A stretch of 17,981 bases of DNA from an uncultured bacterium. GTDB lineage: Bacteria > Fidelibacterota > UBA2242 > JAFGTP01. Each line of letters opens with the position of its first letter. Position 1 is the stretch's first letter. Both the position numbers and the translations under genes were made by a program. Shown here piece by piece: positions 2,457 to 17,918 of the stretch. The stretch lies in assembly GCA_964640055.1 (NCBI GenBank), contig CAZXFH010000027.1, forward strand, positions 1-17,981. Direction: 5' to 3'. The notes beneath the pieces were generated by a model. That model made no database searches. It was given only the letters and a program-made list of their open reading frames with translations, and was not told the DNA's origin.

Positions 2457-2486
2457 TTTGCATTCTCACTTTCTAGCATCTATATT
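2457..2486 (+). promoter_or_regulatory. Candidate sigma70-like promoter for the his leader/operon (-35 TTTGCA, 18-nt spacer, -10 TATATT)
   Basis: TTTGCA at 2457-2462 and TATATT at 2481-2486 lie about 28 nt upstream of the leader ATG. This is based on the sequence pattern only. Confidence 0.3.
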
Positions 2487-2513
2487 TAAAGGTTATTGAA
2501 AGTGAGCGAGTCA

Positions 2514-2582
2514 ATGTCAAGACACACCGACAATTTACATCATCATGGCCATATCAGCTTCGCAGGGAGAACCGGGATGTAA
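2514..2582 (+). CDS. hisL: Histidine-rich leader peptide (MSRHTDNLHHHGHISFAGRTGM), candidate his operon attenuation leader
   Basis: A 22-codon ORF has five His codons clustered at 2538-2552 (CAT CAT CAT GGC CAT). It sits about 80 nt upstream of hisG and is followed by an antiterminator/terminator arrangement. Confidence 0.55.
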   Translation: MSRHTDNLHHHGHISFAGRTGM

Positions 2583-2608
2583 TTGTTTGCTGTCCAAATT
2601 CCAAGATT

Positions 2609-2639
2609 AAACCCGGTTCGCTGAGAATCGGGTTTTTTT
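2609..2639 (+). terminator. Attenuator: intrinsic terminator hairpin (aaacccggttc-GCUGA-gaatcgggttt, 11 bp with one G-U) followed by a T7 tract
   Basis: The stem and loop were read directly from the sequence. Its 5' arm segment cccggttc (2612-2619) is also the exact reverse complement of gaaccggg (2569-2576) at the end of the leader ORF. That gives two mutually exclusive antiterminator and terminator structures. Confidence 0.6.
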
Positions 2640-2664
2640 ATCTTTAAAACCGATGGAGCCTATT

Positions 2665-3519
2665 ATGATCACCTTAGCCATCCAAAAAGCGGGTCGCCTC
2701 AGTGAAAAAAGTATGCGTTTGCTCCGGGAATGCGACATCCACTGTGAAAATGGCGGCCGGACCAAATTAAAAATCAAGGCCGGCAATTTTCCGCTGGAAG
2801 TACTGCATATGCGGGATGATGATATCCCGGAATGTATCCGCGACGGCATTGCGGATATCGGTATCGTCGGCGAAAATGTCTATCTGGAAAAGCAGCCTCA
2901 GCTGCGTTGTATCGAACGGTTGGGTTTTGCCAAATGCCGGTTGTCGATTGGCGTACCCAGGGACATGTCCTATAAGTCTATTACTGATCTGGAGAACAAA
3001 AGTATTGCGACCTCCTATCCCAACATTTTACGGAATTATTTAGATGATAATCAGGTAAACGCCGAGATTCATGAAATCAGTGGATCAGTGGAACTGGCAC
3101 CCAGTATTGGTCTGGCAGATACGGTCTTTGATGTCGTGAGTAGTGGCAGTACCCTGATCAGCAATGGATTAAAAGAGGTAGAGACGGTGGTCCGTTCCGA
3201 AGCTGTTTTAATCAGCCCGGATGATCTGTCTGCTGATAAAGACGAACTCTTAAACCAGCTGCTATTTCGTATCCGGGCAGTCAACCGTGCCCGCCAGAGA
3301 AAATACATTCTACTGAATGCGCCCAATAATGCCATTGACCGGATCTGCGCTATTTTGCCAGGCATAAAGAGCCCGACGGTCATGCCCTTATCTGAATCAG
3401 GCTGGAGTTCAGTCCATTCCGTAATCGCTGAAGATCAATTCTGGGAAAACATTCAAAGTCTCAAAGAGGCCGGTGCCCAGGGCATTCTGGTCTTCCCCAT
3501 TGAAAAAATGATTCTCTAA
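2665..3519 (+). CDS. hisG: ATP phosphoribosyltransferase, long form (HisG)
   Basis: The product aligns along its full length with the long-form HisG family (MITLAIQKAGRLSEKS..., C-terminal regulatory domain present). A GGAG motif lies 6 nt upstream of the ATG at 2665. The ORF track starts at an alternative ATG at 2653. Confidence 0.9.
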   Translation: MITLAIQKAGRLSEKSMRLLRECDIHCENGGRTKLKIKAGNFPLEVLHMRDDDIPECIRDGIADIGIVGENVYLEKQPQLRCIERLGFAKCRLSIGVPRDMSYKSITDLENKSIATSYPNILRNYLDDNQVNAEIHEISGSVELAPSIGLADTVFDVVSSGSTLISNGLKEVETVVRSEAVLISPDDLSADKDELLNQLLFRIRAVNRARQRKYILLNAPNNAIDRICAILPGIKSPTVMPLSESGWSSVHSVIAEDQFWENIQSLKEAGAQGILVFPIEKMIL

Positions 3520-3533
3520 ACCGAGGTGAGCTC

Positions 3534-4832
3534 ATGGAAATCATTAAAAATCCTTCCAAAACCAGCTGGCCGGATTTACTGGCAAGACCCGGTCAGGAAA
3601 GTACCGCAAAAACCCAAAAGAACGTAGCCGATATTATCAAGCAGGTTAAACAACAGGGTGATCAGGCGCTTTTTGAATTAACCTACCGTTTTGACAAGGT
3701 CTCACTTAATCAATTACCGGTTACATCTGCTGAAATTGCACAGTCCATTCAAAATATCGATCCGGAACTGAAAGCGGCCCTCGAATTGGCAGAAAGGAAT
3801 ATCTGTTCCTTCCACGAAGCCCAGCTGCCTGCCGAAACCAAAGTTGTCGAAACTGCTCCGGGAGTACGATGCTGGTTAAAATATCTCCCCCTGGAGAAAG
3901 TCGGTCTCTATATTCCCGGCGGAACCGCGCCTTTATTCTCTTCGGTATTGATGCTGGGCATTCCGGCTCGCATCGCCGGCTGCCGGGAGCTTGTTCTGAT
4001 AACTCCACCGGATAAACAGGGACAGGTCCATCCGGCTATTCTATATTGTGCGCAGCGGTTGGGAATTAACACCATCTATAAAATCGGCGGTGCCCAGGCC
4101 ATTGCTGCTCTGGCCTACGGCACAGAGACCATTCCGAAAACAGCTAAAATCTTTGGCCCTGGCAATCAGTATGTCACGCTGGCCAAACAAATCGTAGCCA
4201 GTGAAGGGGTTCCGATTGATATGCCGGCCGGCCCCTCGGAAGTGATGGTCATCAGTGATGCCAGTGCTGACCCCAATTTTGTGGCGGCTGATCTGCTTTC
4301 GCAGGCCGAACACGGCAGTGACAGCCAGGCTATCCTGGTCAGCACCTCCCGGAAAATAATTGCTCAGGTTCAGCAGAATGTTAACGATCAACTGGAAACC
4401 CTCCCCCGTAAAGCCGTTGCCCGCCAGTCCTTGAAACATGCCCGCCTGATTCAGGTACCGGATATAAAAACCGCTCTGGAAATAGCCAATTATTATGCGC
4501 CCGAACATTTAATTATCATGACTGCCAATCCAGAGGCATTAAGCCCAAAAATTACAAATGCGGGCTCGGTATTTCTGGGAAAATATGCTCCGGAATCGGC
4601 AGGGGATTACTGTTCCGGCACCAACCATGTGCTGCCCACCCATGGATTTGCCCGCAATTACAGTGGGGTTACTGTAAGGGACTTCATGAAATCGATCACC
4701 TTTCAATCCATTACGCCTCAGGGATTGCAAATTCTGGGCCCGGCCATTGCAAAAATGGCGGCTGCGGAAGATTTGGATGCTCATAAGAATGCTGTTACTC
4801 TCCGGCTGAAACAGCTGCAAAAGGACCATTGA
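3534..4832 (+). CDS. hisD: Histidinol dehydrogenase (HisD)
   Basis: The protein is 432 aa and carries the HisD motifs GGAQAIAALAYGTE, IDMPAGPSEV, QAEHG, and GDYxSGTNHVLPT. A GAGGTGA Shine-Dalgarno site lies upstream. Confidence 0.92.
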   Translation: MEIIKNPSKTSWPDLLARPGQESTAKTQKNVADIIKQVKQQGDQALFELTYRFDKVSLNQLPVTSAEIAQSIQNIDPELKAALELAERNICSFHEAQLPAETKVVETAPGVRCWLKYLPLEKVGLYIPGGTAPLFSSVLMLGIPARIAGCRELVLITPPDKQGQVHPAILYCAQRLGINTIYKIGGAQAIAALAYGTETIPKTAKIFGPGNQYVTLAKQIVASEGVPIDMPAGPSEVMVISDASADPNFVAADLLSQAEHGSDSQAILVSTSRKIIAQVQQNVNDQLETLPRKAVARQSLKHARLIQVPDIKTALEIANYYAPEHLIIMTANPEALSPKITNAGSVFLGKYAPESAGDYCSGTNHVLPTHGFARNYSGVTVRDFMKSITFQSITPQGLQILGPAIAKMAAAEDLDAHKNAVTLRLKQLQKDH

Positions 4833-4869
4833 TACATTCAAAAAACCAGGGGAAAAGCAGGTATAGATT

Positions 4870-5928
4870 ATGTTTAACTTAAATGAATTAATCCGAAAAA
4901 ACATTGCTGAGCTCCGGCCCTATTCTTCGGCCCGGAATGAATATGCCGGAAGTCAAGGTATTTTTATGGACGCCAACGAAAACGCACTGGGCTCCCCATC
5001 TGATCAGCCCCTTAACCGTTATCCGGATCCGCACCAACGGCAACTGAAAAAGCGGATCAGTGAGCTGCTGAAAATACCCGCACCTCAAATTTTTCTGGGC
5101 AATGGAAGTGATGAGGTCATCGATTTGCTTATCCGTGCTTTTTGCGAACCCAACCAGGATAAACTAATAATTTTACCTCCGACCTATGGGATGTACACTG
5201 TGGCAGCCAATATCAATGCCGCAAAAATTATCAGAGTACCTTTAACCCATGATTTTCAGATCGATACCCCTGCCGTCCTGGAAAAATTGGCTCTGAAGCC
5301 CAAGCTACTATTTCTCTGCTCGCCCAATAACCCGACCGGTAATTGCTTTCAAGAGAAAGATATTAAAAAATTACTGGCTAATTTTGAGGGGTTGGTGGTC
5401 ATTGATGAAGCCTATGTGGATTTTTGCGCGCGTCAAAATTATCTGTCCTGGCTGAAACAATATAAGAACCTGGTCATCATTCGGACTTTTTCCAAGGCCT
5501 GGGGCATGGCCAGTATCCGGCTGGGCATGGCCTTTGCATCGGCTGATATAATCGATATTCTGACCCAGCTGAAATATCCCTATAATGTCAATGCAATTAC
5601 TCAGGAGGCGGCCCTGCGAGCATTGGATAACATTGATCAACAGAAAAAGATGATTAAACAGCTCCTCAGCGAACGCGACAAACTCAGCCAAGCCCTTTCC
5701 CGCCTAGAAATCGTGGAAAAAGTCTTCCCTTCAGATGCAAATTTCTTACTGGTCAGGTTTCACGATGCCCGCAAGGTCTATCAAGCCATGCTGCAAAGGA
5801 AAATTATTCTACGGGATCGTTCCCAGTTAATACATTGTGATAATTGTTTGCGGATCACCGTGGGGACGCCCCGGGAAAACCAACTATTACTGGAGGCCTT
5901 GTTATCCTACACAAAACAAGGGAAATGA
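4870..5928 (+). CDS. hisC: Histidinol-phosphate aminotransferase (HisC)
   Basis: The protein is 352 aa with a class II aminotransferase fold and a PLP-lysine motif ([15 protein letters not shown]). Its position in the his operon supports the call. Confidence 0.9.
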
Positions 5929-5948
5929 AGCAACAGGAGCAAACCATT

Positions 5949-7043
5949 ATGCGAAAAATTCTTTTTATCGACCGGGATGGTACCATTATCAAAGAGCCGC
6001 CTGACAAACAGATCGACTCCTTAGAAAAACTGGAATTCTATCCGGGTGTGATCTGCGGCATGAAAGCCATTGCCGAAACTCTGGATTATCAATTGGTAAT
6101 GGTCACCAATCAGGATGGATTGGGCACGGAGTTATTCCCGGAAGACACATTTTGGCCGGTGCATAACAAAATGCTAACCATTCTCAAAAATGAGGGGGTT
6201 TCCTTTGAGGATATCCTGATTGATATAAGTCTGCCCCAAGACCAGGCCCCCACCCGCAAACCCCGGACCGGACTATTAAAAGAGTATCTAAAAGACCCGG
6301 AAATCGACTGGCAACAGAGTTATGTGATCGGAGACCGGGAGAGCGATGTGCAGCTGGCCCTAAACCTGGGCTGCCAGGCAATCTATTTACATGAAAAAAA
6401 ACACCCCGAAGCAGTCCTGACCACCACTGATTGGATGGCAATCCACCACTTTTTACGCTCAACCGCCCGCCAGGCGACAGTTCAGCGCCGGACAGCGGAA
6501 ACCGATATACGGGCCACTGTAAAACTGGACGGAAAGGATGCTTCCGAAATAGAGACCGGTATTGGTTTTTTAAACCATATGTTGAACTTGTTTACCACTC
6601 ATTCCGGGATCGATCTCTCCCTGCAGGCCAGCGGCGATCTGGAGGTCGATGAACATCATACGGTAGAGGATACTGCACTGGTTTTGGGCGAGGCGATCAA
6701 TAAAGCTTTGGACAACAAGGCCGGCATCGAACGCTACGGATTTCTACTCCCCATGGATGAGTCACTGACTCAGGTTGCTCTGGATTTCAGCGGTCGCCCG
6801 GAACTGGTCTGGCAGGTCGAATTCCAGCGGGAATATGTGGGAAAAATGCCAACCGAACTGTTTCAACATTTTTTCAAATCTCTAACGAATGCAGCTGGGC
6901 TGACACTTCATATTAAAGCCAGCGGTGAAAATGAGCACCACAAGATCGAGTCTATCTTTAAGGCCGTGGCCCGAGCGTTTAAAATGGCTATCCATCGTCA
7001 GCCGGACAACACCCAAATCCCCAGCACCAAAGGACGTTTATGA
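5949..7043 (+). CDS. hisB: Bifunctional histidinol-phosphatase / imidazoleglycerol-phosphate dehydratase (HisB)
   Basis: The N-terminal HAD-type phosphatase begins [15 protein letters not shown]. The C-terminal dehydratase carries the DEHH/EHH motifs ([20 protein letters not shown]). An AGGAG lies 9 nt upstream of the ATG at 5949. An alternative in-frame ATG at 5925 overlaps the hisC stop. Confidence 0.9.
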
Positions 7044-7621
7044 CAGTTGCCATCATTCGTTACAATGCCGGTAATATTCATTCTGTCCGTTTGGCCTTAC
7101 AGCGACTTGATATCGAACCGGTAGTCACTAATGACCTGCAGCAGCTCCGCAGGGCCGAAAAAATCATTTTCCCGGGTGTGGGGGAGGCCAGCTCGGCCAT
7201 GCATTATCTCAAAGCAAAGGGGTTGACACAAGAGATACCCCGCTTCAGACAGCCTTTTCTGGGGATCTGCCTGGGAATGCAGCTGATGTGTCGGCATTCC
7301 GCGGAAAATAACGCTCCCTGTCTGAACATTTTTCCATCGGTAGTGAAGCAATTTCCCCGACGATTAAAAGTACCTCATATGGGCTGGAACACAATTACAG
7401 ATTTGCAGGGTCCGCTTTTTGAATCCGTGGACCCCGGCTCCTATCTTTACTTTGTACACAGCTATTATGTAGAGTTGAATCCCTATACCGTGGCGCAGAG
7501 TGACTATATGTTTCCCTTTAGTGCGGCGGTGCAAAAAGACAATTTTTGGGCCACCCAATTTCATCCGGAAAAATCCGGTGAAATCGGAGAACAAATTCTG
7601 AAAAACTTTTTATCTTTATGA
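7040..7621 (+). CDS. hisH: Imidazole glycerol phosphate synthase, glutamine amidotransferase subunit (HisH)
   Basis: A class I glutamine amidotransferase with catalytic Cys in GICLGMQ and the His region HSYY. Its start overlaps the hisB stop as ATGA. Confidence 0.9.
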
Positions 7622-7634
7622 GCTTGAGAATTTT

Positions 7635-8357
7635 ATGATCACCATCATTCCGGCCGCTGATATTATCGCAGGTAAATGTGTACGTTTAACCCAAGGGGTC
7701 TTTGATTCTAAAAAGGTATATAAGGGGTCCCCTGTTGAAATTGTGCAACGGTACGAAGACTATGGCATCCAGCGGCTGCATGTTGTTGATCTGGATGGTG
7801 CCAAAGCCCGGCGGATTATCAATTGGCCGACGCTTAAAGAGATCGCCACTCACACAAATTTGACCATTGATTTTGGTGGTGGTATTCAATCCCATGAGGA
7901 TCTGCAGCTGGCATTGGACAGTGGGGCCGATATGGTCACAGCCGGAAGTATAGCGATAAAGGATCCGGAAAAAGTATTTAATTGGATTAAAACCTACGGA
8001 CCGGAAAAAATTATTCTGGGTGCAGATGTACAAAACCATAAGCTCGCAATTCACGGCTGGCAGGAAAAAACCGATCTGGAGCTGTTCACTTTCATTGAAA
8101 AATTCAGGGCTAAGGGCATTCAACAGCTTATCTGCACTGATATTTCCCGGGATGGTATGCTAGCGGGGCCGGCTTTTAGCCTGTATCAGGCACTCAAAAA
8201 TCAGTTTCCACAATTAAAGATTATTGCCAGCGGCGGCATCAGCTGTCTGGCAGACATTGAGCAATTAGACAGAATAGGTGTTACGGCTGTTATCATCGGG
8301 AAGGCCCTTTACGAAGGTCGGATCCGGTTAAAGGAGCTGGAGCAATTTATATGTTAA
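7635..8357 (+). CDS. hisA: ProFAR isomerase (HisA)
   Basis: The N-terminus [18 protein letters not shown] is typical of the HisA TIM barrel, and the protein is 240 aa. Confidence 0.9.
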
Positions 8358-9106
8358 GTAAACGCATTATTCCCTGTCTGGACATTAAAGACGGCCAGAC
8401 CGTTAAAGGCGTCAATTTTGTCAATTTGCGCCAGGCCGGTGATCCGGTGGAACTGGGATCGGCTTATGCCCGGCAGGGGGCGGATGAACTGGTCTTTCTG
8501 GATATTACTGCCACGGTGGAGAAACGGGCCACTCTGGTAAGCCTGGTTAAAAGCATCGCTGCTGAACTCAATATCCCTTTTACCGTGGGCGGCGGGATCC
8601 GGAATGAACAGGATGTGGCCGCACTGTTAAATGCGGGTGCTGATAAGATAACGGTGAACAGCGCCGCGGTAAAGGAACCCGGTCTGATCTCGCGCTTGGA
8701 AAAACAGTTCGGCAGCCAGTGTATCGTATTAGCTATTGATGCCAAAAAAACAGCGGAAGACTGGACTGTTTATATCCACGGTGGCCGTACACCCACCAAT
8801 AAAAAAGCAATTAGCTGGGCGCAACAAGCCACTGACCTGGGAGCCGGTGAGATCCTGCTCACTTCCATGGATCATGATGGTACCCAACAGGGTTTTGCCG
8901 TGGAGCTGACGCGGTGCTTTGCCGCACAGCTCTCTATCCCGGTAATCGCTTCCGGAGGGGCCGGGACCTGTGCCCATTTCAAAGAGATATTTACCCATGG
9001 AAAAGCCGACGCCGCCCTGGCGGCCAGTATTTTTCATTTCGGTCAGATTCTAATACCCGAACTAAAACAGTACTTAAAATCCCATAATATCGAGGTACGT
9101 TTATGA
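8351..9106 (+). CDS. hisF: Imidazole glycerol phosphate synthase, cyclase subunit (HisF)
   Basis: The N-terminus [20 protein letters not shown] matches HisF. Its start overlaps the hisA end by 7 nt. Confidence 0.92.
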
Positions 9107-9696
9107 AAATAGATTTTGATAAAGGCAATGGGCTCGTTCCTGCTATCGTACAGGACGCCAATACCCACAAAGTGCTTATGCTGGGATATATGAACCAAGA
9201 TGCCTATAAGAAGACCCGTCAGACCGGCCGGGTTACTTTTTACAGCCGCTCCCGGCAAGAATTATGGACCAAGGGTGAGACTTCCGGGAATTATCTGTAT
9301 CTCCAGGAGATCCGGGTCGATTGCGATAATGACACCCTCCTGATCAAAGCCCATCCCAGCGGCTCGGTCTGTCATACCGGAAAAGATACCTGCTTTGAAG
9401 AAACCAATATTAGTGTGCAGGATTTTATTCACAGATTGGAAAATATTATCGCTGACCGTCAGCAAAATCCGCAAGCCGGCTCCTATACCTGCCAACTCTT
9501 CGATGTTGGTATCAAAAAAATCAGCCAGAAAGTAGGCGAAGAAGCGGTGGAAGTGATCATTGATGCCTTGGATGATAACATCAACGCTTTAAAAGAGGAA
9601 ACTGCGGATTTGCTCTATCATTTGTTAGTCTTGCTAAGAGCTCGTGATATTGACTGGGATGAGATCATGGCCACCCTGGCTGAGCGGCATAAGTAG
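9103..9696 (+). CDS. hisI: Bifunctional phosphoribosyl-AMP cyclohydrolase / phosphoribosyl-ATP pyrophosphatase (HisIE)
   Basis: The N-terminal HisI part contains GLVPAIVQD...SGSVCHTG. The C-terminal HisE helical pyrophosphatase part contains [27 protein letters not shown]. Its start overlaps the hisF stop as ATGA. Confidence 0.9.
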
Positions 9697-9866: not shown

Positions 9867-10856
9867 TTATACTTCTAGAGACGGACGGTCACATTCCAGG
9901 GTTGCTTGCAATCCCTGATGAAGAGAGCGGGGCTGAAAGCCCAATGCCTGTTTGGCTTTGGTATTATCGCCCAGATAGGTCACACCTGCAGCCACCCGCA
10001 GACTTTCCGATGAATAAACAGCAGGAAGCTTCAAAAGCGCTTCAATAGGTTTCACCATCCGGGATAAAAATTTCAGTAACCAGGGTCTGGGCCTCAGTTT
10101 GGGAGGCTTTACATCAGCCAATTCCGCTGCCAGATCAATGGCCTCCTCCAGGGTATGGGGCGGTCCTCCTAAAATATAACTGTCACCTGGCTGACCCTTT
10201 TCCATGGCCAGCAGATGGCCGTTGACAATATCATCAATATAAGACCAGTTATAAGCGGTTTTTTTAGGTACCAGGAGCAGCTGCCCGTTCAACAAACGGT
10301 GAAGATAGTCACCAATCAGACTGTGATCTCCGGGGCCATAGACCACACCGGGCATGACAATTACCAGGGGTAAGCCCGGTTGCATATAGGGTACCGCCAA
10401 CTGGTGGTGAGCGATCCACTTGGTATGGTCATAACGGCTCAGATGGGTTCCATCAAACCGGTAGGTCTCATCAACGATTTCCCCTTTGGTATCGGAATTA
10501 ATGGCCAAACTGCTGGTATACACGCCCTTGCTGATTTGGTATTCCTGCATTAATTCGAGAATGTTGCGGGTTCCCGTAACATTAATGGCATCCATCTGAT
10601 CTTTTTCTTGCTGAGTATGCAGTCCGATTTTATACATGGCCGCCAGATGAAATACCCGTTCCGCTTTTCGGATACCAGCTCGCAGGGATTCTTTGGCGGT
10701 AATATCCCCCTGAATGATATGAACCCCGAGTGTACTCAGCTGGACCGCCTTGCGGGGATCCCGCACTACCGCAATTACTTCCTCACCCCGGCCTCTAAGT
10801 TCCCTGGCAAGTTGAAAACCGATAAATCCAGTGGCACCGGTGATAAAATATTTCAT
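9867..10856 (-). CDS. NAD(P)-dependent epimerase/dehydratase family protein (extended SDR)
   Basis: An N-terminal Rossmann motif GATGFIG and a catalytic YxxxK (SRYDHTKW) are present, and the protein is 329 aa. Substrate is unknown. Confidence 0.75.
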   Translation of the reverse strand: MKYFITGATGFIGFQLARELRGRGEEVIAVVRDPRKAVQLSTLGVHIIQGDITAKESLRAGIRKAERVFHLAAMYKIGLHTQQEKDQMDAINVTGTRNILELMQEYQISKGVYTSSLAINSDTKGEIVDETYRFDGTHLSRYDHTKWIAHHQLAVPYMQPGLPLVIVMPGVVYGPGDHSLIGDYLHRLLNGQLLLVPKKTAYNWSYIDDIVNGHLLAMEKGQPGDSYILGGPPHTLEEAIDLAAELADVKPPKLRPRPWLLKFLSRMVKPIEALLKLPAVYSSESLRVAAGVTYLGDNTKAKQALGFQPRSLHQGLQATLECDRPSLEV

Positions 10857-10906
10857 CTCAAACCCTCAATTTTCAGCCGTAATCAAAGCCGGGAATGCAA
10901 ATAAAA

Positions 10907-11605
10907 TTAGTGGGGTCTTTTTTTATTTTTCTTTTGCAGACGGGCTTCCCAATCCAGACGAATAGCGGCTTTCACTGAGGCAATTACAAAAACACAAATA
11001 AATATAGTGGAAATGATTACCGCCCCAATATCCACTGCAGAAAAAATACTATTCTCAAAATGGATAATCACCGGATTCCAAAAAATCAGTAAAGTATTCA
11101 CAGCGATTAAGATAATACGAATCTCTGTCGGACCGATCTTGGCAAAAGAAATCCGGAAAACCCGCTCACTATAAGCATCCACATGAGCATAAACATTCAA
11201 CAATAAGTATCCCAAAGCCAGAAACAAAGCGGATTCGATCTGCATAAGGGGCGACAATCCAAAACCAATGCAAACCAGCACAGTGGAACAGGCATCGGAA
11301 ATGTGATCTACAAAATACCCGTACCGCTCCCGCTCAGCATGGCGTACACGGGCCAGGGTTCCATCCAGACTATCGGCAAACCAATGCAAAATGAATCCAA
11401 AATTACTGAGTAACAACCAAAACCTTGAATACCAGGTCAGAATATATCCAGTCGTAATAATCAAAGCAGCCACCAATCCCAAAACAGTCAGGTGATCCGG
11501 TACGACCCAGCGGGGTAGTGCCCGGGCCATAATGGGTAGTATTCTCTGCTCAATTGGTCCGGTATAGGTATTGATAATCCGGCGGGCGTTTTTTTGTTTT
11601 TGCAT
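10907..11605 (-). CDS. CDP-alcohol phosphatidyltransferase family membrane protein
   Basis: The signature D-G-x2-A-R...G-x3-D-x3-D is present as DSLDGTLARVRHAERERYGYFVDHISD. The protein has multiple hydrophobic helices. An AGAGGAG Shine-Dalgarno site lies 5 nt upstream of the ATG at 11605. Confidence 0.75.
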   Translation of the reverse strand: MQKQKNARRIINTYTGPIEQRILPIMARALPRWVVPDHLTVLGLVAALIITTGYILTWYSRFWLLLSNFGFILHWFADSLDGTLARVRHAERERYGYFVDHISDACSTVLVCIGFGLSPLMQIESALFLALGYLLLNVYAHVDAYSERVFRISFAKIGPTEIRIILIAVNTLLIFWNPVIIHFENSIFSAVDIGAVIISTIFICVFVIASVKAAIRLDWEARLQKKNKKRPH

Positions 11606-12246: not shown

Positions 12247-14952
12247 ATGAAATTAATCAAAATTGTTAGTTTTTACTTACTTTTCGGTAGTGTACTCCTG
12301 ATCGCCTCCCAGGCCGGGAAAGTCTATCTGGTCTTGGGCTCGGATACCGCGATCTGGGATGGCATGAGCACCGGCCGTTTTCACTGTACCTATGATCTGA
12401 GTTTGTATACGGATCCCACCCGTAATGCCAATCAGATCATGGATTCCAGCTACCGGAATCAGTTCGTTGATTCCTACGGGACCCCGATGAAAATGACCTG
12501 GTGGATGATGTGTGGTAACATTTTCCGCTATGCCACCAACACCAATATTCCGATTCCGAATATCATGACCATGTACTTGATGAAAAAATACTACCTCCCG
12601 GAAATAAATGCGATCGGTGACGAGCTCTCGCTGCATTACCATACTTTTAAATGGAGTGATTATGATGGGGATGGCCTGTGGTACTGGAATCAAGCGCTGA
12701 CCTTTTCCGAATGTCGGGATGATTGGAATTTTACCCTGTGTCAACTTCTGCTGGAAGAGCAGGTTTTCCCGGTCTCCTTCCGCAGTGGCTGGCACTACAT
12801 GGACAATGAATGGCAGCAAAATTTGAATGACCTCCTTCCCTACAGCATGCACAATGCCTATCCGTCCAAAAAAACTGAAGATACCGAACCCCTGGACAAT
12901 GTAATTGACTGGTCGCAGGCACCATCAGAATTTGTGCCCTATCATCCCGCTCCGGAAAACTACCAACTGCCGGGCGACAGTCCGGGCTGGAATTTGCGTT
13001 CGGCCCATTTCTGGGGCGTTCGTGCGCGTGACCTGATGGATACGGTTTTTGCCGCAGCTGCCAATGGCACGGATCAAATAGCCTGCTTCTGGGGGCATCT
13101 CCCGGAAACAGATTTTAACACCAATGTTGAAATTATGGATAGCCTGGCCCACAAAATGGCCAATAAATATCCGGAAGTGAAATTTCGCTACTGTACTGCT
13201 ATCGAAGGCATGCAGCGCTGGCAGCAGACGAGCGACAGCCTGGCTCCTGAAGTCACTCTGGAACAAACCGGCAATGAAACGGAAATTGGCTTCCGGATTA
13301 CCTCCAATGAAGCCACCTTTCAGCCGGTTCCTTTTCTGGCAGTCAAGGATATCTATGAAAATTATTTTATCATGGATTGCTATGCGACGGGCACAAACAC
13401 CTGGGAAACAACCGAAACAATCAACCGGGAGCTGCTTGCCAAAGTAGGGGCGGCCCTCTGTGATAGTATGGGTAACCAAAGTATGGAATTTATCAAATAT
13501 CTGCCCGATGACCAGTTCATTGACAATACTGACGATGGTTATACCGAGCTGGCGGGTAACTGGACGACCACAACAGACCGGACCTGGGGACTGGACGCCA
13601 GAATAAGCACCCTCAGCGAAAACGATTCAAATGTGGTTCAGTGGACTCCGGCGATCCAGAAAAGCGGTTTATACAATCTCTTTATTCAGGTGCCTACGGT
13701 AAACAATGCTGCCGAACACACTGTTTTCAAAATCATCGCTGGTGGCATACCGGTGGATACCATCACTTTTGATGCGGCCCTGCCACCGGATGAATGGATC
13801 TATATCAGCACCACAGAGCTATCCGCAGGGGCCAGCAACCATTTACAGATGAAAATAAAAAACACCTCGCAAACAGAGGTTCAGATCGCGGCGGATGTGG
13901 CCAAATTTTCGGCTCTGGTGCGGGAATATGATTTGGTCTTTGACACCGATTTGATCTACTTCGGGGAAGTCAGTGTCGAAGACACCGTTACCCAAACCTT
14001 AAAGTTACAGAATCAGGGTTATCAAGCGCTCACTATTCAAGAGGTCACCTCTCTGAAAGGGCTATGTCAGGTTACGGCTGAATTTCCGTTGCAGGTCCCG
14101 CAAATGGGCTCGATCCAACTGCCAGTTTGGTTCTACAGTACGGAATTAGGGTCAGTGTCGGATACCCTGCTGATCACCAGTAACGATCCGCGTAATCCAC
14201 AAAGCAAAATCCCGGTGAGCGCGGATGTACGACCTTTCTTTACCATCATCGATAATGAGGACTCTGTTTATTATCAGGAATATGGTAATTGGCACACCAG
14301 TGTAGCCGAGGCCTATGGTCCTTCCAGCCGCTATGCCTGGCTCAACTCCAGTCCCTTAGCCAGTGCGGAATTCCAATCCCGGGTAAAGAAAAATGGCATC
14401 TATGAAATTTTTGAAATTGTTCCCCGGACAGTAAACGCCACTGATCATGCCCTCTATAAACTGATTGTTGGGGAAACAGTAAAGGATTCAATTATTATCA
14501 ATCAAAACACCGATAGCGGGGGTTGGATATCCCTGGGTCAATATTATCTGCCAGCAGATGAGGCTGTTAAGATAAAAGTGATTGATACTGGTCAGAGCAC
14601 CCTGGGGCATGTACTGCGGGCCGATGCGATCAAGATCAGCCTGATCGAAGAAGTAACTCAGATCGCAGACAGTCAGGACCAGATACCTTTGACATATTCT
14701 CTGGGTCAGAATTATCCCAATCCCTTCAACGCAACCACCACGATTCCCTATACCATTCCCAAACAGGGCCGCGTTCAGGTGACGATCTACAATACGCTGG
14801 GACAAACAGTGGTAAAACTGGTGGATGAGATCCAAACAGCGGGGCAATACCAAGTAAAATTGCAGGTGGGTCATTATGGTTCCGGCATCTATCTCTACCA
14901 GCTGAAAACCGATCAATACTGTGCCACCAAAAAATTGATCCTGGTGAAGTGA
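12247..14952 (+). CDS. Secreted multidomain T9SS cargo protein: signal peptide, unassigned N-terminal domain, golvesin-C-like domain, choice-of-anchor-D/HYDIN-type Ig-like domain, second golvesin-C-like domain, T9SS C-terminal sorting domain
   Basis: An N-terminal signal peptide is present (MKLIKIVSFYLLFGSVLLIASQAG). Two paralogous ~130-aa domains (about 13517-13910 and 14245-14640) have the pattern IDNxD...YxExGxW...NATxH..YK...INQNTDSGGWISLGQYYL...VLRADAIKI, which resembles the golvesin C-terminal domain. An Ig-like domain lies between them (EYDLVFDTDLIYFGEVSVEDTVTQ...ITSNDPRNP). The last ~84 aa (LGQNYPNPFNATTTIPYTIP...GIYLYQL) form a T9SS C-terminal domain. Confidence 0.8.
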   Translation: MKLIKIVSFYLLFGSVLLIASQAGKVYLVLGSDTAIWDGMSTGRFHCTYDLSLYTDPTRNANQIMDSSYRNQFVDSYGTPMKMTWWMMCGNIFRYATNTNIPIPNIMTMYLMKKYYLPEINAIGDELSLHYHTFKWSDYDGDGLWYWNQALTFSECRDDWNFTLCQLLLEEQVFPVSFRSGWHYMDNEWQQNLNDLLPYSMHNAYPSKKTEDTEPLDNVIDWSQAPSEFVPYHPAPENYQLPGDSPGWNLRSAHFWGVRARDLMDTVFAAAANGTDQIACFWGHLPETDFNTNVEIMDSLAHKMANKYPEVKFRYCTAIEGMQRWQQTSDSLAPEVTLEQTGNETEIGFRITSNEATFQPVPFLAVKDIYENYFIMDCYATGTNTWETTETINRELLAKVGAALCDSMGNQSMEFIKYLPDDQFIDNTDDGYTELAGNWTTTTDRTWGLDARISTLSENDSNVVQWTPAIQKSGLYNLFIQVPTVNNAAEHTVFKIIAGGIPVDTITFDAALPPDEWIYISTTELSAGASNHLQMKIKNTSQTEVQIAADVAKFSALVREYDLVFDTDLIYFGEVSVEDTVTQTLKLQNQGYQALTIQEVTSLKGLCQVTAEFPLQVPQMGSIQLPVWFYSTELGSVSDTLLITSNDPRNPQSKIPVSADVRPFFTIIDNEDSVYYQEYGNWHTSVAEAYGPSSRYAWLNSSPLASAEFQSRVKKNGIYEIFEIVPRTVNATDHALYKLIVGETVKDSIIINQNTDSGGWISLGQYYLPADEAVKIKVIDTGQSTLGHVLRADAIKISLIEEVTQIADSQDQIPLTYSLGQNYPNPFNATTTIPYTIPKQGRVQVTIYNTLGQTVVKLVDEIQTAGQYQVKLQVGHYGSGIYLYQLKTDQYCATKKLILVK

Positions 14953-15219
14953 ACAGACCAAACCAAATTGGCCAGCCCTTTCGAAGGCTGCCGGTGGTTG
15001 GCAATCGGGAAACTGTTAAAACCGTTTCTGTAATTTTGAGTTTTTGTTATTTTCGCGTTAACTCTCGCACCCACAGTTAAAACTGTGGGTTAATCCGAAT
15101 AATACCTGGACAGCGATGATTTTTGCTAAGGGTCACACCGCAGAGCAGTGTGGCCAGACTAGACTTCGTCCCGATAGCTGATCTTATACTCGAGCTGAGG
15201 ACTAGGACAACCCCCTTTA

Positions 15220-15249
15220 TCCCCCTTTGATAAGGGGGACGTTTTTTTT
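15220..15249 (+). terminator. Intrinsic terminator-like hairpin tcccccTT-TGAT-AAggggga followed by T8
   Basis: The stem is a perfect 8 bp (15220-15227 with 15232-15239) with a 4-nt loop, and a T8 tract follows at 15242-15249. It lies about 270 nt downstream of the T9SS cargo gene stop. Confidence 0.6.
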
Positions 15250-15454
15250 GACTGAGTGTCATAGAATCAACATCGCTCATAATCATTGTGAATTTTTACA
15301 CCTCTCCTGATTCCCACAGTGGGGTTTTCTCGAGGTCATTTTTCAAATAATTTTTCAGTTTACACCTCATTTGGTTTTATTCTAAATTGCTGATTTACAA
15401 GTCATGCTCAACTGCTCAACTCAAAAAACCAAACCGACCCTATCGCGTTCAGGT

Positions 15455-15472
15455 CCCCCCTATGAAGGGGGG
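15455..15472. repeat. GC-clamp hairpin ccccccTATGAAgggggg, one of several poly-C/poly-G hairpins in this intergenic region
   Basis: A 6-bp all-GC stem with a 6-nt loop. The related structures C5-A-G7 at 15627-15639 and cccacagTTAAAActgtggg at 15070-15089 lie in the same 860-bp spacer. Confidence 0.4.
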
Positions 15473-15535
15473 AAGTGAAGGGGGGTGTCAGACAATCAGT
15501 AGTTCTTATGACCCCAGTTCTTACAACCCCCTGTC

Positions 15536-15564
15536 TCCCCCTTTGATAAGGGGGACCTTTTTTT
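15536..15564 (+). terminator. Second copy of the same terminator-like element (tcccccTT-TGAT-AAggggga + T7)
   Basis: The hairpin is identical to the one at 15220-15249. The repeated context acaaccccct...tccccctttgataagggggac...ttttttt is shared with 15208-15249. Confidence 0.55.
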
Positions 15565-15815
15565 GAGCGGGTGTTGTTTTATCGGTATCTCTCATTATAT
15601 TCATCGGTTATGATACCTCCCTATATCCCCCAGGGGGGGACCTAATTTAGAAAATTGCTGAATAATTAACATTAGGGTTAGATATGGAATATCACAATAG
15701 GAAATACGAAATGATTGTAATTCATAATTCACAAATAAATGCTTGGTAGATCACTCATATTTCCATAATATTCAGTTGATTATGAATTGGTTAATACTTT
15801 TATAAAGAGTTGATC

Positions 15816-16738: not shown

Positions 16739-17101
16739 ATGTCATACTATCATGAACCGGTTGAAGAGCTCAGTGCGCAGACCCGTAACTGTACCCGGGC
16801 ACTCAACAGCTTAAAAGAAGAGATCGAAGCAGCGGACTGGTACAACCAGCGGGTGGATGCCAGTCAGGATGAAAATCTGAAAAATATTCTCGCCCATAAC
16901 CGGGACGAAGAGATCGAACATGCCTGTATGTTGATCGAGTGGTTGCGTCGCAATATGGATGGTTGGGACGAGGAATTGAAAACCTATCTGTTTAAAGAAG
17001 GCGATATAACCCAACTGGAAGAAGCAGGCGCAGAAAATGAAGCGGATCCCGATACTACTTCCGGGGAATCAACAAGTTTAAATATCGGCAAAAACAAATA
17101 A
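16739..17101 (+). CDS. Encapsulated ferritin-like protein (EncFtn) cargo with C-terminal encapsulin targeting peptide
   Basis: The blocks EEIEAADWYNQRVDAS...ILAHNRDEEIEHACMLIEWLRRN match the EncFtn di-iron site (Glu, Glu, His). The acidic C-terminal tail ends in TSLNIGKNK, which matches the family-1 cargo-loading peptide consensus (SLxIGxLK-like). A strong Shine-Dalgarno site (AAGAGGAGG) lies 5 nt upstream. Confidence 0.8.
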   Translation: MSYYHEPVEELSAQTRNCTRALNSLKEEIEAADWYNQRVDASQDENLKNILAHNRDEEIEHACMLIEWLRRNMDGWDEELKTYLFKEGDITQLEEAGAENEADPDTTSGESTSLNIGKNK

Positions 17102-17117
17102 TTAGGAGAAAGATACC

Positions 17118-17918
17118 ATGGATTTATTGAAAAAGTCTCTGGCGCCGATCACCGCCGATGCCTGGGATGAAATAAATGAGGAAGCCACCCGGGTCCTGAA
17201 AAACAAACTGTCGGCCCGCAAATTTGTGGATGTGGCCGGACCCAAGGGATGGGATTATGCCGCAGTTCCGCTGGGTAAACTGCAAATTTCCGATCAACAA
17301 AAAAAGGATGCGGTCCGCCATGGCATTCACCAGGTGCAGCCCTTAGTTGAAACGCGCCGCAGTTTTCAATTAGACCTGTGGGAACTGGACAATATCAATC
17401 GCGGCAATCCCGCAATAGAGCTGGGTGACCTGACCCAAGCAGCCGCCGAGTCAGCGGCTTTTGAAGAAAAGGCGATCTATTACGGACTTTCAAAAGCCAA
17501 TATCAAGGGCTTAAAAGAAAGCAGTGCTCACAAATCCCTGGCTTCGCCGCAGAATAAAGAAGATTTTTTGAACAGTGTCGCAGATGGTGTCAACCAATTC
17601 AAGTTAGCCTCTATTGAAGGCCCCTATACCCTGATTCTGCATCCGGAAAAATGGAAAGAGATGATCAGCTGTTCACAAGGTTACCCGGTCACCCGCCACC
17701 TGGATGAAATATTGGGGGGTAACATCCTTGTTTCTGATAATGTGAACCAGAATGATATGTTTCTGGTCACCGAACGGGGTGGTGATTTTGTGTTAACGCT
17801 GGGCGCTGATTTTTCGCTGGGTTATGAACATCATGATCACCAGAAAGTACAGCTGTTTCTGGCCGAATCCTTTACCTTTCAGGTCCTGGATCCGGAAGCG
17901 GTGATCATTTTTACTTAA
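17118..17918 (+). CDS. Family 1 encapsulin nanocompartment shell protein (HK97-fold, linocin M18 / Thermotoga maritima type)
   Basis: The 266-aa product aligns along its full length with the T. maritima encapsulin as recalled from memory (MDLLKKSLAPITADAWDEIN...RKFVDVAGPKGWDYAAVPLG...FQLDLWELDN...IEGPYTLIL...ERGGDFVLTLGADFSLGYE). An AGGAGA Shine-Dalgarno site lies 8 nt upstream, and the gene sits 17 nt downstream of its cargo gene. Confidence 0.88.
   Translation: MDLLKKSLAPITADAWDEINEEATRVLKNKLSARKFVDVAGPKGWDYAAVPLGKLQISDQQKKDAVRHGIHQVQPLVETRRSFQLDLWELDNINRGNPAIELGDLTQAAAESAAFEEKAIYYGLSKANIKGLKESSAHKSLASPQNKEDFLNSVADGVNQFKLASIEGPYTLILHPEKWKEMISCSQGYPVTRHLDEILGGNILVSDNVNQNDMFLVTERGGDFVLTLGADFSLGYEHHDHQKVQLFLAESFTFQVLDPEAVIIFT

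Follow-up and report, generated by a model that had tools for sequence, protein, structure and literature searches.

The enterobacterial his operon is preceded by hisL, a short ORF with seven tandem His codons lying directly before hisG, and its leader RNA is a multi-hairpin A:B/C:D/E:F arrangement in which mutually exclusive antiterminator and terminator structures are selected by the position of the ribosome. Attenuators in 'Bacteroidetes/Chlorobi' are reportedly mentioned in the abstract of a 2004 study by Vitreschak et al. Leader-peptide systems were described by Naville and Gautheret in 2010 as known only from Proteobacteria and Actinobacteria, to which Firmicutes were added (PMC2965389), and amino-acid attenuators were regarded by Sun et al. 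as essentially gamma-proteobacterial, since only such Rfam models exist (PMC3766115). Ribosome-sensing leaders outside Proteobacteria include the Bacteroidetes tryptophan leader, mentioned in the supplement of PMC9723704, and the His leader of Firmicutes hisS/hisZ (PMC2965389). A described counterpart of the element analysed here is THC0290_N_0824, a 'leader peptide attenuation element' of Flavobacterium psychrophilum hisG (Guerin et al. 2021; PMC9723704, Table S7), for which a mapped transcription start, condition-dependent read-through, conservation in Flavobacteriaceae and the lack of an Rfam match were reported. An explicit account of his attenuators in Bacteroidetes was sought in the literature, mostly without result, and his leaders are undiscussed in a recent survey of his genes in the FCB superphylum (PMC8305728).

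In this study, a 17,981-nt stretch of DNA from an uncultured bacterium (hereafter the window) was analysed, in which hisG is preceded by a candidate attenuator. The locus resembles enterobacterial hisL in its short ORF with a run of His codons directly before hisG, in its exclusive antiterminator and terminator, in the predicted switch by ribosome position and in the gene order hisGDCBHAF(IE) of the operon that follows. It differs in having four interrupted His codons (HHHGH) instead of seven in tandem, and three RNA segments with no detectable 1:2 or pause hairpin instead of a multi-hairpin leader; the two leaders share no sequence similarity, and the window belongs to an FCB-group lineage. 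The design is the same as that of THC0290_N_0824, which has a His-rich leader of ~19 aa (MSLNQLHHHHFHICSQAKC), an antiterminator 5' arm (segment 2) that begins a few nt past the final His codon and reaches almost to the stop, and a terminator ~30 nt downstream; it comes from the same superphylum and likewise has no Rfam match. However, the arms differ (CUCAGGCG/CGUUUGAG in THC0290_N_0824 versus GAACCGGG/CCCGGUUC in the window), its promoter is of the Bacteroidota type whereas that of the window clade is of the TTGACA/TATAAT type, and the HisG proteins of F. psychrophilum and the window are only ~60% identical. The Bacteroidetes trp and Firmicutes hisS/hisZ leaders serve another amino acid or other genes and show no sequence relationship to the window.

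The his operon and its host lineage

The window carries a complete hisG-hisD-hisC-hisB-hisH-hisA-hisF-hisIE operon at 2665-9696 on the + strand, as assigned by NCBIfam equivalog matches, with the hisG start at 2665 being that chosen by the gene caller. A Shine-Dalgarno sequence for hisG (GGAG, 2655-2658, +) was read from the sequence and is left unsequestered by the terminator described below. The gene upstream of this terminator ends 375 nt before it, and the interval holds a promoter-like site.

The nearest HisG proteins anywhere showed 65-71% identity, and the named ones among them were labelled Candidatus Marinimicrobia / Neomarinimicrobiota or Calditrichota. No HisG relative above 71% identity was found in genome, metagenome and protein databases, bar the same contig itself, which is present in two Logan assemblies with one mismatch. 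The products of the ORFs at 90-2234 and 12247-14952 are large and secreted, and both carry T9SS type A C-terminal sorting domains, which mark the host as a member of the FCB group; the former has tandem-95 repeats in addition. Given the distance of the nearest HisG, the Marinimicrobia and Calditrichota labels and the flanking T9SS domains, the host was placed in an isolated uncultured FCB lineage, in line with the non-proteobacterial origin that a preliminary description of the leader had suspected.

Several further features of the window were observed. Two genes at 9867-11605 on the - strand, convergent with the end of the his operon, encode an HpnA-like (hopanoid-associated) sugar epimerase homologue, scoring below the curated cut-off, and a CDP-alcohol phosphatidyltransferase resembling (archaetidyl)inositol-phosphate synthases. 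The intergenic region 14953-15809 contains a 42-nt direct repeat, 93% identical between its copies at 15207-15248 and 15523-15564, each of which forms a terminator-like hairpin (CCCCCTTTGATAAGGGGG) followed by a T-run; with a related inverted copy at 15451-15473, it could be a small repeated palindromic element. An encapsulin operon at 16739-17918 comprises a ferritin-like encapsulin-associated cargo (16739-17101) and a family 1 encapsulin shell protein (17118-17918).

A histidine-codon leader and an intrinsic terminator precede hisG

All elements of the leader lie on the + strand. A consensus scan located a putative sigma-70-like promoter at 2457-2486 (TTTGCA, 18-nt spacer, TATATT), which aligns with the TTGACA-17-TAnnnT of the nearest relatives. 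The leader ORF of 22 codons runs from an ATG at 2514 to a TAA stop at 2580-2582, encodes MSRHTDNLHHHGHISFAGRTGM and ends 82 nt before hisG. Its ribosome-binding site appears weak: a purine-rich, possibly Shine-Dalgarno-like stretch (GTGAGCGAG, 2502-2510) lies 4-12 nt before the ATG, where the nearest relatives have TTGAGA ~8 nt before theirs. The regulatory codons CAT CAT CAT GGC CAT (HHHGH) occupy 2538-2552. The preliminary description had recognised this His-rich leader ORF and its HHHGH run, but its count of five His codons within six needs correction, as the short, interrupted run has five codons, four of them for His, and the remaining His lies at codon 4.

Segment 2 spans 2565-2577, starting 12 nt after the last His codon and ending 3 nt before the stop. 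Its core, GAACCGGG at 2569-2576, was confirmed to be the exact reverse complement of CCCGGTTC at 2612-2619, as stated before. The latter lies within a shared segment 3 (2609-2619), which forms the 5' arm of the terminator and, with 2612-2619, also the 3' arm of the antiterminator. The terminator is completed by segment 4 (2625-2635) and a T7 tract (2633-2639), recovered both by scanning and by folding (-16.5 kcal/mol). Its stem (2609-2619 with 2625-2635) consists of 11 pairs, one of them G-U, closed by a GCTGA loop, and the T7 tract ends 25 nt before the hisG ATG at 2665. A consensus scanner recovered the same terminator independently, and the strong terminator of the preliminary description stands in all these particulars. 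When the 430-nt intergenic region was shuffled 2000 times by dinucleotides, a stem of at least 10 pairs followed by a T-run turned up in 5 of the shuffled sequences. Pairing of the region after the His codons with the terminator 5' arm reached -16.9 kcal/mol (relative to shuffles, z = -3.1 and p about 0.01); the core of this antiterminator has just 8 bp, enclosing a loop of ~35 nt.

The leader is conserved in the closest relatives

The closest relatives were loci of MAGs labelled Marinimicrobia or Calditrichota (L081, L082 and six, L163-L168, reached from Marinimicrobia-type proteins), whose leaders are nucleotide-level homologues of the window leader and are unannotated there. The promoter, the Shine-Dalgarno-like element and the His run are common to these loci and the window, as are GGAACYGGGATG overlapping the stop, which in the relatives reads GGAACYGGGATG(AGA)TAG, and a terminator of the form CCCGGTTC...GAACCGGG-T6-7. 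Segment 2 is conserved as GGAACYGGG in the alignment of the relatives, and GGGATG and CCCGGT are invariant among them. The C-terminus of the leader peptide was recorded as a shared GTGM(R), the relatives being spelled ...SRRGTGMR* and the window ...AGRTGM*. The window leader stops one codon earlier than those of its relatives (GTGM* versus GTGMR*), carries extra residues (ISFA) where they have SRR between the His run and the arm, and has no UCCCGG element, which could give a weak 1:2 helix in L163-L165.

RNAalifold on the clade yielded the antiterminator helix when the 3' arm of the terminator was cut off and the terminator when it was included. Furthermore, 85% of the antiterminator cells were paired in the correct register, versus 11-50% in other registers. 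Since the helices are conserved in sequence within this clade, only wobble and no true compensatory changes were seen there. The upstream neighbours of hisG vary (citrate synthase, thymidylate kinase and HTH genes), while the ORF, the terminator and the complement stay with hisG.

The leader family extends across FCB-group hisG loci

In 157 related hisG loci of FCB-group bacteria, a His-rich mini-ORF was sought, defined by an ATG start, a length of up to 60 aa, 3 or more His within 7 residues and a position within 350 nt upstream of hisG. Such ORFs were found at 128 of the 157 loci, compared with 3/157 in reverse complements, 2-3/157 in shuffles and 4/139 when the adjoining stretch farther upstream was searched. 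At the level of sequence, ~80% of the sampled loci in Bacteroidota and allied phyla follow this design, making it the rule. A search for comparable micro-ORFs before hisG in related genomes had been proposed at the outset, with a lack of conservation named beforehand as refuting; relatives proved to keep the leader ORF together with its terminator and the complementary stretch, with clade-specific co-variation.

Pairing statistics were computed for the 94 loci at which leader and terminator were both present and the His runs comprised 3-8 codons. Segment 2 paired with segment 3 at a median of -13.9 kcal/mol (median z -2.6), and 73% of the loci reached p<=0.05 against shuffles. Arms paired better with their own partners (mean -13.7 kcal/mol) than with the arms of unrelated clades (-9.1). 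The successive arms read GAACCGGG / CCCGGTTC / GAAYCGGG in the window clade, GGTAAGCC / GGCTTACC / GGTAAGCC in Chitinophagaceae and CAGACGG / CCGTCTG / CAGACGG in Weeksellaceae and Flavobacterium. All three segments co-vary between clades, and the co-variation evidence is inter-clade. Spacing is tightly kept: the distance from the last His codon to segment 2 has a median of 11 nt (IQR 8-12), segment 2 lay under the footprint of a stop-codon ribosome at all 69 significant loci (69/69, 100%), and a median of 31 nt separates the stop from the terminator. Leaders of FCB hisG loci, an uncurated group with THC0290_N_0824 as its type example, range over 12-34 aa, with an arm that overlaps the leader stop and the terminator 21-43 nt past the stop and within ~120 nt of hisG. 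The window falls inside these ranges, with a leader of 22 aa, an arm at -15 to -3 from the stop, 26 nt between stop and terminator and 25-29 nt to hisG.

Some loci depart from this pattern. About 20% of the hisG loci have no ATG-started His-rich mini-ORF within 350-450 nt, among them L013, L031, L034, L039, L046, L049, L062, L067 and L075; Emticicia, Spirosoma, Larkinella and Dyadobacter stand out in this group. Leaders at such loci may begin with other start codons or lie farther away, or another regulator may be in use. In a Calditrichia locus (L003, about 2170-2500), a His-rich ORF and a CCCGGTTC-type terminator lie more than 300 nt upstream of hisG, and three tandem copies of AAATTCGTG together with other hairpins are inserted between the terminator and hisG. 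Three MAGs labelled Roseobacteraceae, Rickettsiales and Deltaproteobacteria (L030, L038 and L076) carry an FCB-type hisG, and the latter two also FCB-type His leaders (MNYVVKHHHHHHHHCA and ...IHHHHHHLLSGEGTGDDCP), which suggests mis-binning or mislabelling.

Ribosome position selects between alternative folds in modelled transcripts

Constrained folding, a check proposed in the preliminary description, gave the antiterminator for a ribosome stalled on the His run and the terminator for one positioned at the stop. In the window, as long as the 3' arm of the terminator was untranscribed, the minimum-energy fold held an antiterminator hairpin at 2566-2622 (-16.1 kcal/mol), with or without a His-stalled ribosome, and masking of 2565-2595 by a ribosome on the stop codon led to the terminator (-16.5 kcal/mol). 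The same was seen in the family: when the mask reached 12 nt beyond the final His codon, the antiterminator was the minimum-energy fold at 77 of 78 loci, and with the stop-codon footprint masked, the terminator was part of the minimum-energy fold at 78 of 78. On the complete ribosome-free transcript of the window, the terminator is thermodynamically favoured over the antiterminator (family folding, 7/78), so the switch must be kinetic, as in classical attenuators. The stop codon and adjacent bases (AUG UAA UUG in the window, AUGAGAUAG in the relatives) pair just 5' of CCCGG and extend the stem of the antiterminator, which accounts for the invariance of GGGATG outside the core helix.

The window thus combines a leader ORF with end-product codons, an intrinsic terminator, a mutually exclusive antiterminator and a spacing at which a stalled ribosome would free the antiterminator arm and a stop-codon ribosome would cover it. 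On its features and modelled folds, the element is very probably a ribosome-mediated transcription attenuator that sets the whole his operon by the supply of charged tRNA-His. The analysis shows the sequence features, the alternative folds and their conservation, geometry and co-variation; we infer the translation of the leader, the coupling to polymerase and the response to histidine. Leader translation and a response to charged tRNA-His find indirect support in the conserved Shine-Dalgarno-like element and in the condition-dependent read-through published for F. psychrophilum. Transcription would begin just 3' of the promoter at 2457-2486, and a ribosome would read the 22-codon leader. When His-tRNA is scarce, the ribosome would stall at HHHGH (2538-2552); as its footprint ends before 2565, segment 2 (2565-2577) would be free to pair with segment 3 (2612-2619) once the latter is transcribed, blocking the terminator and allowing RNA polymerase to enter hisG. 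When His-tRNA is ample, the ribosome would reach the stop at 2580-2582 and mask segment 2 together with the extended base of the antiterminator, whereupon segment 3 would pair with segment 4 (2625-2635) and transcription would stop at the T7 tract. The histidine attenuation logic put forward in the preliminary description, with a His leader, an antiterminator sharing the 5' arm of the terminator and a switch by ribosome position, is therefore supported by folding and conservation.

The window clade appears to use three RNA segments

A 1:2 (anti-antiterminator or pause) hairpin that could synchronise ribosome and polymerase was not found in the window, where the best duplex reached -3.1 to -6.2 kcal/mol, no better than shuffles; such a hairpin belongs to the classical trp and his leaders but is not a strict requirement of leader-peptide attenuators. 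Across the family, 1:2 pairing was not above shuffles either (median z about 0; 11-12% of loci at p<=0.05). Without a ribosome, the nascent transcript of the window took the antiterminator fold, as did those of 11 of the 12 members of its CCCGG-type clade, so that read-through would be predicted for the ribosome-free state of this clade. Since a 1:2 hairpin is lacking in the window and its closest clade, the ribosome itself would act as the anti-antiterminator.

These observations bear on an alternative in which the same attenuator follows classical four-segment logic, with a weak or non-canonical 1:2 structure and termination as the default of the ribosome-free transcript. For the window this is unlikely, as it conflicts with the poor 1:2 duplex, the median z about 0 of such pairing in the family and the ribosome-free antiterminator of the CCCGG-type clade. 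In its favour, when the transcript without the 3' arm was folded free of ribosomes across the wider family, the antiterminator formed at only 24 of 78 loci, versus 77 of 78 with the His region masked, and upstream sequence therefore competes in many lineages. In Chitinophagaceae, UUACCU faces GGUAGG, and in some near relatives of the window UCCCGG faces CUGGGA. A reading of the duplex tests by which the whole family has no 1:2 helix was accordingly tempered, and the three-segment claim was confined to the clade of the window, because upstream competition affects 54 of the 78 loci family-wide.

The Chitinophagaceae leaders (for example L017, L020, L025, L055 and L071) conserve ...HHHH(I/F)LPxR/G*, and their Leu-Pro codons, UUACCU, can pair with a GGUAGG that spans the stop codon. 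Short 1:2 hairpins probably exist in these leaders, though they do not beat shuffles.

Returning to the three-segment reading, there is perhaps an even chance that the full picture holds, namely a superphylum-wide uncurated family (Bacteroidota, Calditrichota, Marinimicrobia and Fidelibacterota) in which the clade of the window represents a minimal three-segment, default-ON attenuator with the stop-codon ribosome as its only anti-antiterminator. If so, abolishing translation of the leader would derepress the operon, opposite to the super-attenuation of enterobacterial leaders.

Other regulators and chance association

Regulation that depends on a trans factor or on a tRNA-binding RNA (T-box-like, a HisR-like repressor or an RNA-binding protein), with the mini-ORF irrelevant, has precedents in other phyla, where T-boxes or HisR control his genes (PMC9413887, PMC3766115), and an extra protein layer is possible. 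As the explanation of this leader it is very improbable: neither the T-box nor the His_leader model (RF00514) matched the window at the gathering score or positions 2235-2700 at E<=10, and no other Rfam model supplied a match there that was retained; the leader RNA of ~145 nt, mostly coding, is too short for a T-box; and the spacing of His codons, segment 2 and stop is conserved as ribosome sensing predicts. Matches to sRNA families of Rfam, which are chance matches driven by the terminator, and a sub-threshold match to Trp_leader were rejected. It is hardly credible that the terminator merely ends an upstream transcript or a small RNA beside a coincidental His-rich ORF and 8-nt complement. 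In favour of this reading, the minimal-criteria terminator scan is unspecific (1 found versus 0.8 expected per kb), and the leader as a whole folds with no unusual stability (z -0.7). Against it, 375 nt with a promoter-like site separate the upstream gene from the terminator, ORF, terminator and complement accompany hisG across many genera whatever the upstream gene, and the 128/157 loci with His-rich ORFs compare with 2-4 in controls, a conservation of sequence that effectively refutes coincidence.

Discussion

An attenuator of this kind was already known in the FCB superphylum, given the annotation of the F. psychrophilum leader in 2021 and the reported mention of Bacteroidetes/Chlorobi, and the element is neither rare nor new for the FCB group. 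The novelty lies in the Marinimicrobia/Calditrichota-like member, the documented breadth and the apparently hairpin-less three-segment variant. The understanding of attenuation itself is unchanged by the element in the window. The three-segment variant would nevertheless be a simple system for asking how dispensable the classical 1:2 pause hairpin is. Furthermore, the his leaders of the FCB group are covered by no Rfam model, and the loci collected here are ready for use in training a model of a new RNA family; annotation could be improved as well, as mini-ORFs and leaders were unannotated in the MAGs examined. For the organism, the sequence and its modelled folds suggest that histidine biosynthesis in a little-studied, uncultured FCB lineage would be under textbook ribosome-sensing control.
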